Source: Macrostomum lignano (lineage: Eukaryota). Taken from it: a stretch of DNA of 64,000 nt. Positions 10,167 through 17,100 of the stretch are shown here, piece by piece. Each line of letters starts with the position of its first letter. Position 1 is the stretch's first letter. The notes beneath the pieces were generated by a model. The model worked only from the letters and a program-made list of their open reading frames with translations, did no database searches and was not told the DNA's origin. Location: NCBI GenBank assembly GCA_002269645.1, contig NIVC01000570.1, forward strand, positions 124,001 through 188,000, in the 5' to 3' direction. A program made the translations under genes and the position numbers.

Positions 10167-11196
10167 CTTGCACGGAAACGTGCTGAGTGGTCCATAGTTA
10201 TTCTAGTATCTGTGGTTCTAACAAAGTTTCAAGTTGTACGACACCGCAAATGAATCGACAACGACCCAGAAGGGCAAGAGCAAGCCAGAAGCTAGCTTAA
10301 ACGCGCATCTGATAACCCGGCCACCGGTTCAGTCTTTTCTGGGAAGCTTGTTAGGCTGCAGGGAGTTCTCACCAGAGCGTCATAACGCCGGGAGAGCGGA
10401 CCCTATATATACCATACTTTACTTCTATTATACTGTACTAATGTACGCTCGTATAAGCACCAGAGAGTGTCACAACACCTCTGGGAGCAACGCTAGTTCT
10501 GTGCGTCATCACGCCAGAACGAGCAATTTCGTACTCAGAGCGTCATCACGCCTGTGAGTAGCAGTATCACATTGGCAGAGCGTCACAACGCCTGCAGGTA
10601 CAACCGTACTTGGGCTGGGCACCCGAATCGACCCCGATTGCTACAAATTCAACGTTCAACATTCTAGATCCCACTACAACTTTATTGGAACGAGCATGCA
10701 TAGATTTACTATCGCAGGGCCTGCATGCTTATTCACAGCTGTTTCCTATTCACTGCCCAGCCCCAACCGGTAGAAATTCTAAATTAAGAAGCCCAAATTC
10801 TGAGTAATTAACCAGTCCCCAAACGGTAGGCAGACGATGGAATACGTTGCCGAATTGGAATTGACATTTCGGTCGAAGTTCTTATATTCAAACAAGAATA
10901 AGGATGGCCTTTCGACGCCTTATTCGCTAATTGCATGCTGAAAAAGGCATAGCGCGAGCTAGGCTTAATGCCTAATACAAAGTGTTCCAGATCCAGCGCA
11001 GTGAAAGTTTCTCCGACAGCCAATGGAATCGGCTCTCCAAATTGTGTCAGAATTTTCATATCAAACGCGAAAACCAATCCCCGCCCGCTGAGTATTTCCT
11101 CGCTTTCCTTTCTCGATGCTTTCTCGATGCTTACATTCTCCGACCGGACACTCGGCGTAGCGTCAATCAATCAAGCTTTCGGCCACTGGTGGCGAT

Positions 11197-14100
11197 ATGG
11201 ACACAGATGCAGTGCCGAACTCCTCCAGTCAGCAGAGCCCGACTTTGCGGCGACGCATCGCACTTCGCTCTCAGCTGGTGGCTCTGCTGTCCCGCTCTAC
11301 AGTGCACGGCATATCGCATTCAGCCAGCTCGTCCAACCGCTACGAGCAGGTTTTCTGGCTGATCCTGGTAGTGCTCGGAGTCACTTCCTTTGTCGGCAAT
11401 CTGATCTCCGTTGTGCAGCGCTACAACCAGTTCCCTGTGCTCACGGCCTACTACTCAAATGAGGAAAACTTCACTTGGCCAGACATCACGTTCTGCGATA
11501 ACTCGCCAATCTCGCTAGATAATGATACCGCGTTTGAGCAGTTCCGCAACTTCACCAACTGGTTGAGCTCTGATACTCGAGTGCAAAATCTGAGCAGCCT
11601 GATGGACAAATTTCACAACAATTCGCTTTTAAATGAAGCCCTTAACGTCCTGGTGCGGTCCATCACCCTGTCTACCATCGACAGTCACGTTTTCCAGGCC
11701 GATGAGGTGCGGAGAGTGATCTCCAACTTGGCGTTCTGCCAACAGAAAGAATTGATTCAGACTGAGATAAACATGGACTCCATGTGCGAAATATTTGAGG
11801 ACTATGCTCCGTACTTTCACAGCAACAGCATCTCGCTGCGTTACCGTTGCGCCTGTTACACTCTCAAGCTGAACGACTTTATCTTCAAGAAGAATGTCAA
11901 CGCCATTGAGTCGCTTCAGTTCTTCCTCAGGGGCAACCATTTAACCTACGTGCGCTTTAACTCTTCCAATTATCAATTCGGCGGCCGGGTTTACATTCAC
12001 CTGCCAAATACTCTGCCAGAGGAAGGTGAAATGATTGAAACGCCGCCCGGAGTGACAACCACAATCCTGCTCGACCAGAAGAGACGCCGGCTCATACCGC
12101 AGAAGAGCGACTGCCGAGAGACAGAGAAAACGGCATATATATACGACTACGACTTGCGCCTCGCCAGGCCGTACAACCTCAGCTACTTTCACTGCCATCA
12201 GCTGCTGTCGCAGCGGTTATTCTACGAGAATTGCCGCTGCTTCAATCCGCACCTGATTGTGCCTAAGTTGGACGACAGGCCGCCTGTGCTCTGCTTCAAC
12301 CTGAGCGTCTACGGACTCGAGCAGTTGGCGGAAAACTTGGAATGCTTGGACAAGACTGCGGTGCGCTATAGAGACGAGTGAGCTCTGGTTTTTTGAGTTT
12401 TCAACAAGCGTAACAACTGAATGGTTTCTGAATTATAATAGTTTTTTTCATCGAGTAAGATTTTTTGGGTTGGTGAAAATTTGAGTTGGTAAAGTTTCGG
12501 GTTGGTGATATGAGTGAGGTGTGGTTTCGGGTTGGTAAAGTTTCGATTTGGTGAAGTTTTGAGTCGGCAAAAGTTTAGATTGATGAAGTTGAATGACAGG
12601 AAAATCCACTGCATCCAAAGCTACTTGCATAGAGAGTGCAGAGTGCAGAGGGAGCTTTGCTTATTGAGCAACGAACGACACATTCGTAGTAGACTTATGG
12701 TATACAATGCAATGACCAAGTTCTGAAGAGGTATCCGCCTTAATGAGTGTTGGACAAAATCTAGATTAGAATCGAAGCCCTAGTCAGCCCAGTAACCCCA
12801 CAGATTTTGGCGACACTAACAATAAAGAGAGGGAACAGAAAGTTCTGGAGGACGATAATCAGGACAAGGACTGGGGCCAGAGTCAACTCTGTCTGCTCCG
12901 AATGCCCCTCTCTAACGGCAGAGGAAGAATTATAATTATGCCAAACAGCAGTGAAACAAGCTGGAATGCGCCGCGGAATAGACAGGACTCGCTCAGAGGC
13001 GTGTTCTCAATACTCAACCACTGCACAGTCGACCTGGATTGACTATTCACTGCCGGAGTTGCAGACTGAATGTTTAATTGGGAGTTCTGCTTTTTTCTCT
13101 CTTTGAAAATAAAAGTTGAGCACGCAGGCCTCAAGGACCCCAACATTACGTTTTGCGCATGAGCAAACTGCGATTTTTAATCGAATATGGGCGGGCATTG
13201 CGTGAGCCGCTGCTCTGCTGAGAAAGAGAAGAGCACTCCTTCCGATCAAAATCCTAATCATGCAGAAATGGCACCGCACATCCGAGCAAACATTTCCCAC
13301 TCTCCCGTCCAGTTTGGCTTCCAAGGCAACTCGATATGCCCGAGCGCAATTATCTTTGACAGGACCCGGCCTCGGAAAGTATTCCGAGGATAATTTAGAA
13401 GGCTACTGGGACTGGAGGAAGAGAAGGAGAGAGCTGGGATCCTTAGCCCCTCACCCTCAGGCGAGTAGTAGTAGTAGTGCCCTCGCTGCGGGTTTTGAGT
13501 GACAGGCGGCTATGCTAGGACACGCCTCCGCTAGGACAGGGTGACACTTTGATATGCTGGGATCAGGGGCGAACAAGGCGAAGAGCAGAGTGGAAGAGCA
13601 TTAGCGGGGAGGAGCCGCCTGGATCAGAGAAAATGAACAGTTTTGAGCATCAGAGCTCAGATCTAACTCGGCCAATTCAATGTCCAATAATTCTAGTAGG
13701 CCTTCGGACTGCGTTGGATTGTCGCGATCGAATTAGTCGGATGAAATGACGGGATAATCTGTTGATGCAAATTTAGTGACATACGAGCGTGAAGCACTTG
13801 ATTTGGATATAATGAAATTGTGATGCGCTGGTTAAAGTAATACATGTGGTATTTTTTCATGTGGTCTGCCTTAGTATCTTAGTGTCTTAGTGTCCTAGTG
13901 TCCAGATGTCTTAGTGTCCTAGTGCCCTAGTGCCCTAGTGTCTTAGTGATAGGAAAGTGGCCCCCTCCACTAAGTTAAACATAGAAAAACACATTGCACT
14001 AATAACTGTCTTTTGTGAGGGCATTATATCCTTGCGTCGCTGCATACTTACCTATGCAAATAAAAGCACCATTTGCTTTTTGGTCGAGTGTATTATCAGC

Positions 14101-17100
14101 TTACTAGCAGGAAAAGTTTGCTGTGAAGATAGCTTGAAACGGAGACTCAGGCGATATCGAAATAATCTCCGGCTTGTTGCACAAAGCAAAAGTGTGAAAG
14201 AGGCTCGGCGCAATCTCTCACACCCGCATATCCTTCGTTGTCTTCCTCTGATTCTCACCTGTATAAAAAGACATGTACAAGGAAATGATGCTGGTGCCCC
14301 GGTTGCAGTATGAGGCACTTGTGAATCAGAGGGGCATGGAGACATGGAGTCTGTGAACCCGAGCTAGAGGCGGAAAACAGTTGCGCAGGATTAGGGACGA
14401 GCGTTGTGTGCAGCAGCTGCAAGCAAGTTCGACCCAAGAACAGTCTCCAGTAATTCACAAAGAACCGCAGTGGAAGGTGTTATATCTGACGGTGAATCAG
14501 AAATGGCATCATCGCCTGCAGGCATTGATTAGCTTCATAACCGTAAAGTGCAAGTCGATTAGCATAGATGATACATATGAAGTTTCTGTCAATGGTAAAC
14601 CGTTGTACAACTCAAAGATCGTGGACCTGCTGCATTTCATAGTTAAAGATACGTACTCTAAGTACCTTCAGCCACCGAATGGGATTAATGAGTTTGTTAC
14701 GTGTCTTCAAGAAAATCAGGTACCTCTGTCTGCTGCTGATTTGAATATGAAAAAATTGCTGGAAAAGCCTCGGGAAGAAAAGTATAGTCCTAAAAAACAT
14801 CGACTGCATATAATAAGATTCAGTCTCAGAAAGGATACGGCAAGTGGATCAAGTGGCCAAGATGATTGTCATTGATTTTGAAGGATTTCCGCACCTCTAC
14901 AAAACAGAGGACTTTTGTGATTAAGGAAATTGCGTGGGTTGAGTTTGCATGTGGTCAAACGACGGCTCATTACTATTGCTACCAGCCGCCGCACAGTTTT
15001 GAGCTCTTTGATCGAGGACAGCGACGAACCTGCTACTGGCTCACCAATAAGCGGCACGGTCTAGACTGGGACAGGAGTGGGTTCCGACCCTACTCTTGTC
15101 TCTTGAGCGATATCTCTCACTTGCAAGGCTCGATATTCAGCAAAGGGGATGTCAAGTGCCAGTTCCTGTCGCGTCTGCTGCTACAGCCTGTCTACGACCT
15201 AGCACACCTGGCCTTTCCGAGTGCCTCAAAGTACGTGCTACCCTGCGCCCTGGCCAAGGTGGCGCTGTACGCTGATTGGCTGCGGCCTCGCGGCTACGGG
15301 TCTATAAAAGTAGCGATCTGCAGCAGGCACTGGCGTTTCTCTCGATTGTCTAAAGATGGTCGCAACAATTCGCGTGACAAACATCGTGACAGGAGCCGAT
15401 CTGGCGACCTGGGTGGGTCTGCCACAACTAGCGAATTTCCTGACTCTTCATCTGCCTCAGTATCACACAATCCATCTCTGTTTCATCCTCGAACACTGGC
15501 AGTGGTGATGAAGAGCGGGCAGCATCGAGTAACCGCGCTGGTGTATCCGACCGGACAAGTGTCTGTCTGTGGAGCCAAAAGCATGGAGGAGGCTCTTGCA
15601 GAGACGGAGAAGATTGTGAAGCTGTGTGCGGACTTCTTGCGATTGACCAGTCTGCCCTAGATTCGCATCAAAACTATTACCTCTGTGACGGCCTTTCCCG
15701 CGGGTCGGCATCCACTCCGGTTGGGGGAAGTCAAGTCACTCACCCAGACACTCAGCTGCCCGATCCCTCATCTGGCCTGCTCGACCGGCCTGCCCGACCC
15801 CACCCTTGGCCTGCTCGACCCCTACCTCCGGCCTGCCCCGCCCCGCCTCCGGGACCTCCTCATCGCTGATTGACTCCCCCTCGCTGATTGACCAGCCATT
15901 AATTGGTATGGGATGCACGAGGTGCTGGACAGGAACGGGCCTTGGTATGGGATGGGGTGCAGGACAGGAGGGGGCCGGTTTGGGGTCGGGGTGGATGCGT
16001 GGCGGTTGTGGGTTTGGTGTCGGGGTGGGCGTCTTTGGGGGCCCGGTTTGGGGTCGGGGGTGGGTGCGTGGCGGTGGTGGGTTAGGGGTCGGGGTGGGCG
16101 TCTTTGGGGGCCCGGTTTGGGGTCGGGGGTGGGTGCGTGGCGGTGGTGGGTTAGGGGTCGGGGTGGGCGTCTTTGGGGGCCCGGTTTGGGGTCGGGGGTG
16201 GGTGCGTGGCGGTTGTGGGTTTGGTGTCGGGGTGGGCGTCTTTGGGGGCCCGGTTTGGGGTCGGGGTGGATGCGTGGCGGTTGTGGGTTTGGTGTCGGGG
16301 TGGGCGTCTTTGGGGGCCCGGTTTGGGGTCGGGGTGGGTGCGTGGCGGTGGTGGGTTAGGGGTCGGGGTGGGCGTCTTTGGGGGGGGGGCGTCTCCCCTC
16401 ATTGGCCAGGTGCCCCTGCCAATCCCGTGCGATGGCGGTGGAGGGGACCACTTTCCTACTACTTGTCTTAGTGTCCTAGTGCCCTAGTGCCCTAGTGTCT
16501 TAGTGTCTTAGTGTCCTAGTGTCCTAGTGCCCTTGTGCCCTAGTGCCCTTGTGCCCTAGTGCCTTAGCGCCTACCCAGCCACTCGAGATCATTGCCAGCT
16601 GCCCAAACAGCAATTCGCTGCCTTCTTTCAGGTCGCAGTTCCGCGGGCTGCTGCGCAAAGAGTGCGCCGATCTGCGCAGAAAGCGCTGCGACTCGCTGTC
16701 CTGGGAGCCGGAGAAGCAGCGCGAGCTCTACAGAGAGATGTGGGCGGAGACCGCCAACCCGGCCCGGCTGGCCTTCATCAGGGCCGCTCTGAGTGACATT
16801 GAGTAAGCTGGTTTCCACTGAACCTTGAGCTTTACGGTATTCTTTGTAATGTAGACAGGAAGTATCAAGTATTACGAGCGTACTCTACAGGGGTTACGGA
16901 GACGTTGAACCGGTTTATGAATGCTTTATAACAAGAACAGCAATACCACCACTAACAAAAATAACGACAGCAACAACACTAATAATAAAAATCGTAACAA
17001 CAACGGAAACAGCATTAACAGCAACAATAATAATAGTAATAATAGCCAAAAAAGCAGCAACGGCTACAAAAGCAACAACAAGAACAACCAAAACAACACC

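Follow-up and report, generated by a model that had tools for sequence, protein, structure and literature searches.

The window analysed here, a stretch of 64,000 nucleotides of Macrostomum lignano DNA, contains at 13945-16463 a 2.5-kb, internally deleted Polinton of a family that we call A, which has both termini but has retained only 1.77 kb of its interior. All of its features are read on the forward strand. The copy is flanked by the 6-bp sequence TGTCTT on the left (13939-13944) and on the right (16464-16469), a likely target-site duplication that is weak on its own because it sits within a CTAGTGTC-type tandem repeat. A short remnant of the left terminal inverted repeat (13945-13970) matches the AGTAGTAGGAAAGTGG terminus of five family-A copies, and the internal segment (13965-15737) is 95-96% identical to five longer copies. 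This segment holds the remnant of a conserved ORF of about 110 aa (13981-14313), which follows the packaging ATPase in position, lacks Pfam support and is presumably gasdermin-X/pX-like; a broken copy of a conserved Polinton ORF of about 200-240 aa (14273-14875) that belongs to no known family; and a broken nuclease gene (14862-15657) without a Pfam match, which we take to be DEDD-like from its DxEGF motif. A TATAAAAG box (15303-15310) stands 53 nt before the ATG (15356) of a TBP-like pseudogene (15356-15737) that comprises lobe 1 and the beginning of lobe 2. The right terminal region (15737-16463) consists of GC-rich tandem repeats and ends in a CTACTACT Polinton terminus, and PolB is missing from this copy.

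The initial annotation of this DNA had recognised a TBP homologue here, and the homology is confirmed: 15469-15657 matches the Pfam TBP profile with 31.3 bits (E=1.8e-7; cut-off 22.9), and when the breaks are bridged by X the read-through reaches 34.4 bits with a profile of cellular TBPs only, where the best of 1000 shuffles reached 6.7, so that the likeness is not due to chance. The described layout of a box followed by an ATG is present, as is the in-frame TAG (15658-15660); a frame change also exists, but comparison with an unbroken sister copy puts it at about 15472-15480 and not at about 15467. Other details have to be revised. The reported 'NPSLF' motif is an off-frame artefact, as unbroken copies read YHTIRHRLVHPRTL at that place, and the early end of repeat 2, behind its first helix, does not reflect the design of the gene, since family similarity breaks off at 15737, the point at which an internal deletion has brought the TBP gene up against a terminal region. 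The supposed fusion to the nuclease is only apparent and results from a natural overlap of the nuclease frame, which continues over TBP lobe 1, with the TBP gene. With its frame break, its stop codon and its cut-off at 15737, the TBP-like gene in the window is a dead remnant, broken and shortened.

Intact copies exist elsewhere in the genome. Of 167 candidates from a search of the M. lignano genome, 150 were scored and all of these were matches, at least 36 of them belonging to family A (68-100% identity) and the remaining ones among these 150 to a second family, B (41-56% identity). These counts are lower bounds, yet they may be inflated by duplicated haplotypes, since host TBP and a TRF2-like gene are each found at three near-identical loci (L059-L070). 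An unbroken TBP frame of about 199 aa is present at 13 of 19 family-A sister loci and is broken at the other six. The unbroken protein contains two Pfam TBP stretches (PF00352; 68-71 bits, E 6e-19), matches only TBPs among 35 PDB sequences and is predicted to adopt a two-lobe saddle fold (AF2 model, pLDDT 84, from a 7-row alignment that included host TBP and TRF2). In Foldseek searches with this model the top PDB matches were all TBPs (TM 0.60-0.72, E 1e-13), and giant-virus TBP-like models in BFVD matched with E 3e-12 to 1e-8. The parent element is a Polinton that encodes its own TBP-like factor in many copies, as had been proposed, whereas the accompanying idea of a one-repeat decoy is refuted because the unbroken genes are two-lobed. 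ORFs of 354-379 aa that resemble a DEDD-TBP 'fusion' were considered as a fused gene and rejected; they are joined at differing points among copies and are thus frameshift products. Database proteins resembling family B carry the source label Macrostomum lignano.

The comparison of elements drew on ten neighbourhoods, each at most 40 kb long, and on 28 additional stretches. Gene order is the same in A and B, and in both families a single direction is shared by the genes for the integrase, a minor-capsid-like ORF, a small basic ORF, the major capsid, the protease, the ATPase, the 110-aa ORF, an ORF of about 200-240 aa, the DEDD-like nuclease and TBP, and both additionally carry pPolB and a PC4-domain gene. 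The TBP gene occupies one fixed place, with the nuclease gene on one side and the end of the polymerase gene on the other, and the TBPs of A and B are 32-39% identical to each other. Pfam supports pPolB, rve, chromo, adenain and PC4 domains: protein-primed PolB (PF03175, E 4e-18 to 5e-11) and the rve integrase (PF00665, E 3e-16 to 8e-13) were each recognised in 3/3 ORFs scanned, and the adenain protease (PF00770, E 1.6e-4) lies barely above the cut-off. The packaging ATPase gives weak P-loop matches and has a Walker A motif. Sequence searches with the major capsid ORF returned no match; its predicted model is poor (pLDDT only 43), and the PDB matches listed for it are all double-jelly-roll capsids (best E 1e-5). 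AGTAGT termini with 6-bp target duplications were found in 5/5 family-A copies, and the window copy likewise has inverted-repeat termini and a likely duplication.

Several further observations concern the make-up of the two families. Family-A copies (L021-L040) have two different polymerase 5' ends. Several copies of 10.6-11.2 kb lack most of pPolB and have intact termini and target duplications, from which it follows that non-autonomous copies of this family have been mobile. The PC4-domain gene lies at opposite ends and in opposite orientations in A and B (L035:932-1624, L045:1240-1980). A terminal ORF of family B (L046:5894-7318, L049:6909-7817) has paired CxxC motifs and a canonical TATA box; it gave no Pfam or Atlas match and is possibly an early gene of the 'Oncoid' type, a label used in PMC8502044. 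An Atlas search with the zinc-finger ORF as a possible TFIIB gave no usable match. Where it runs over TBP lobe 1, the nuclease frame has no stop for 107-111 codons in 26 of the 27 family-B copies listed and for 109-129 codons in 18 of the 19 family-A copies listed. After synonymous reshuffling the share of trials in which it stays open is 0.1-0.9% for B and 9.6% for A, and further downstream the same frame contains 4-8 stops. The nuclease tail over TBP lobe 1 looks like a maintained overprint, the tail sequence itself being loosely constrained.

The element TBP gene is under purifying selection. The 17 distinct unbroken genes of family B form 136 pairs, which are not independent of each other; the 120 pairs with dS>0.15 have a median dN/dS of 0.25 (0.14-0.60) and lobe medians of 0.16 (lobe 1) and 0.20 (lobe 2). 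That the gene is a captured retrocopy of host TBP, carried as neutral cargo, could be argued from the broken state of the window copy and from the pooled pN/pS of only 0.49 (12 genes) in the young family A. However, the element TBPs of A and B are just 25-29% identical to host TBP, a clade of element-type proteins with host TBP is rejected (AU p=0.0004), and ENA and Logan data contain relatives from outside this genome with 34-62% identity. JGI data contribute a further match level of 28%. We regard a host retrocopy as very improbable, and it is largely refuted by the AU test and the signature of selection. The initial annotation had reached the same view, partly from the intronless state of the gene, which is uninformative because the host TBP core likewise lies in a single open frame. 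In a tree of 34 rows, selected out of 156 after trimming, the nine element-type proteins are found together on one side (support 93/78, not starred), their neighbours being short TBPs on long branches; owing to these long branches the deeper placement is unsure. The outside relatives include P0001, P0002, P0004-6, P0008 and P0014, and short TBPs branch beside them. Thirteen pattern matches in viral contigs included 0 relatives, and a metagenome scan with P0008 returned a single match, short and spurious.

The element TBP combines conserved TFIIB-binding glutamates and lobe-2 phenylalanines with a changed central DNA face. In an alignment of 10 element-type rows (yeast numbering), N69, T112, L114, G119, E186-P187-E188, F190 and F207 are kept in 10/10. 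These residues, L114 apart, are among the likenesses to cellular TBP/TRF2 and archaeal TBP (PF00352), together with the two-lobe saddle and the core length; unlike cellular TBP, the element protein lacks an N-terminal extension and is encoded by a mobile element. By comparison with cellular TBP, F116 is replaced by Y, Q158/N159 by K/T, V203 by K and T124 by C in all 10 rows, T215 has become A, S or C, V122 is changed too, and at F99 family B has W, the residue of family A being ambiguous. Among the DNA-contacting Phe and Asn positions to which attention had been drawn at the outset, F190, F207 and N69 are thus kept, while F116, N159 and F99 are altered or, for F99 in family A, uncertain. We take N69/N159, T124/T215 and the four Phe to have TATA-contact or intercalating roles, and this full canonical set is absent from the element TBP. 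The changes at N159 and T124 could represent loss rather than altered specificity. The basic patch on helix 2 of the N-lobe, presumably a contact for TFIIA, Mot1, TAF1 and Brf1, is mostly kept in B and partly acidic in A, where 3/5 basic positions are lost. The EPE stirrup is present in 10/10 rows, and its Glu pair, E186 and E188, is assigned to TFIIB binding in PMC7221094. A Pfam scan of 23 element ORFs found no TFIIB, and of the seven contigs that carry the genome's 15 Pfam TFIIB matches, none figures among the contigs listed for the TBP elements.

A hexamer, TAAGAA, recurs at fixed distances before the same gene set in families A and B. It was first spotted by eye. When every hexamer within 160 nt upstream of a gene start was then ranked, it came first in family B (8/10 genes, random-window p 5e-5), and in family A it shared the first rank with ATAAGA, which overlaps it (5/9 genes, p 0.006, integrase start excluded). 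In the elements the box takes the form TTAAGAA or TATAAGAA, the latter of which may be readable by host TBP. In family B, counted in up to 12 copies, it precedes the integrase (4/5), minor capsid (7/7), basic ORF (11/11), capsid (11/11), ATPase (10/10), 110-aa ORF (6/6), nuclease (12/12) and TBP (12/12) genes, and is absent from the protease (0/11) and the ORF of about 230 aa (0/12). Family A has TAAGAA at six genes, TAAGAG at the ATPase, TATAAAAG at TBP and none at the protease; the protease and the ORF of about 200 aa are the same two genes without the box in both families. The TBP gene's own box is the canonical TATAAAAG in 8/8 family-A copies tabulated and TTAAGAAG at the homologous place in 12/12 family-B copies. 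The promoter box that the elements share is TAAGAA rather than the plain TATA of the initial annotation. At the PC4 gene, at the zinc-finger ORF and at pPolB of family A, TAAGAA is mostly replaced by TATATAA or TATAA; canonical TATATAA was found at the PC4 gene in most copies checked of both families, and family-B pPolB has neither a TAAGAA nor a TATA box within 160 nt (3/3).

The TAAGAA signal resides in position and strand. Whole-element counts are only about twice the shuffled expectation; in family A the hexamer occurs 8 times on the gene strand and 0 times on the other. Host flanks contain 0.25 per kb per strand. Box and ATG are 10 to 147 nt apart, and several of the boxes fall within upstream coding sequence, where they form Leu-Arg codons and where shared descent could account for the retention of some of them. 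A search with the ATPase for TBP-less Polintons as a control yielded none among the 150 of 389 candidates scored, all of which belong to family A or B. Contigs from four runs that are presumably RNA show fairly even coverage of the element, in its genes as well as between them, and are neutral on expression.

We think it probable that the element TBP binds this box, makes use of host TFIIB and Pol II and thereby defines a putative class of late genes, a reading that draws on analogy with the TATT-binding proteins of herpesviruses. In such a scheme the PC4 and zinc-finger genes and the polymerase gene of family A would come first, their canonical TATATAA boxes being read by host TBP. The element TBP, with its altered saddle, would then bind the TTAAGAA/TATAAGAA box, its retained EPE stirrup would recruit host TFIIB and Pol II, perhaps assisted by the element's PC4-domain protein, and the integrase, capsid and packaging genes needed for virion formation and integration would come under its control. 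We infer that Pol II may be redirected in this manner. A simple early-to-late order fits family B poorly, because there the TBP gene itself carries the putative late box, and leaky or positive-feedback expression would be needed. The wider proposition, that animal Polintons have an early-to-late switch of their own, built on a one-protein pre-initiation factor with a re-specified saddle, a private TAAGAA box, borrowed host TFIIB and Pol II and a TBP gene overprinted on the nuclease tail, is more tentative, and we hold it to be somewhat less probable than its contrary. To our knowledge the timing of capsid and integration gene expression in Polintons has not been described, and virions are, for animal Polintons, mostly an assumption drawn from sequence. 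With a TBP of their own and a box to match, these elements would offer a concrete, testable switch and, if true, direct evidence of a regulated virion-making phase in such 'transposons'.

Two other readings bear on the same observations. The element TBP might have kept its TFIIB stirrup and lost useful DNA binding, acting as a decoy that soaks up TFIIB or TBP partners and shuts off the host, with host TBP reading TAAGAA. The invariance of E186/E188 alongside changes at Q158, N159, V122, T124 and T215 would suit such a protein, as would the apparent loss of three of five basic helix-2 positions in the family-A alignment, and TATAAGAA is a single change away from canonical TATA. Yet N69, T112 and the aromatics at 116, 190 and 207 are retained, as is an aromatic W at 99 in B, the DNA-face substitutions are invariant across A and B, a pattern suited to a site that has changed and not been lost, and selection acts on both lobes; we consider a decoy unlikely. 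Slightly less likely still, TAAGAA could be a start-site, trans-splicing or other RNA-processing signal, with TBP acting elsewhere, for instance at canonical TATA boxes or the terminal repeats. The variable distance to the ATG, in one case 10 nt, and the AG within the core speak for a signal of this kind, and the core resembles TAAG, the late start motif of baculoviruses. On the other hand, the boxes are not preceded by a pyrimidine tract, and at homologous places the box alternates with TATAAAAG or TATATAAGAA, as expected of a TATA-type element.

If the element TBP does act as a late factor, it would be a minimal counterpart of the herpesvirus late complex. The TBPs of beta- and gamma-herpesviruses (EBV BcRF1, KSHV ORF24, CMV UL87) recognise a late TATT box, a TATA variant, at structural genes, as set out in PMC4893493, and they share with the Polinton case a TBP-like protein in a virus that lacks an RNA polymerase of its own and a TATA-variant box before structural genes. 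They are large proteins of about 10% identity to TBP that work in a six-protein complex of demonstrated function, whereas the element TBP is a bare core of 187-199 aa that keeps the TFIIB stirrup, is paired with TAAGAA and has a function that we infer. The NCLDV TBP-like proteins are likewise viral two-lobe TBPs and include the structural matches in BFVD; however, according to PMC7221094, almost all viruses with an NCLDV-type TBP also encode TFIIB and the Glu pair is poorly kept (about 40%), in contrast to the invariant pair and the lack of detectable TFIIB in these elements. A natural TBP with a changed DNA face and an intact TFIIB stirrup would also be a useful case for studying how TBP specificity is rewired.

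In their pPolB, chromodomain-bearing rve integrase, adenain-type protease, P-loop ATPase, terminal inverted repeats and 6-bp duplications, and in a capsid that may be of the double-jelly-roll kind, the elements resemble Polintons/Mavericks and adintoviruses. The initial annotation knew of no TBP as Polinton cargo, a statement that needs qualifying. The accessory-gene text on animal adintoviruses in Starrett et al. (2021; PMC8502044) names neither TBP nor PC4, and 'TBP' is listed in that article's Fig. 5 legend, which deals with MELD viruses and related elements, for the most part out of non-animal data sets; a text search of one supplement of that study gave no match. TBP genes are mentioned for algal mirusvirus-like elements in PMC10675990 and go unmentioned in the available text of PMC11131425 and PMC12220804. 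In our literature search no paper described a TBP of animal Polintons or a late promoter box in them, with subscription journals, Repbase reports and figures being mostly unsearchable.

Beyond the element copy itself, one locus (L118, G000:C753) has both deletion junctions and the flanking repeat in common with the window copy, together with further deletions, and because of these shared features it is likely a duplicate of the window insertion. Outside the element, the window contains at 11161-12381 on the forward strand a single open frame of 406 aa that matches the amiloride-sensitive sodium channel family (Pfam ASC, E 1e-27).
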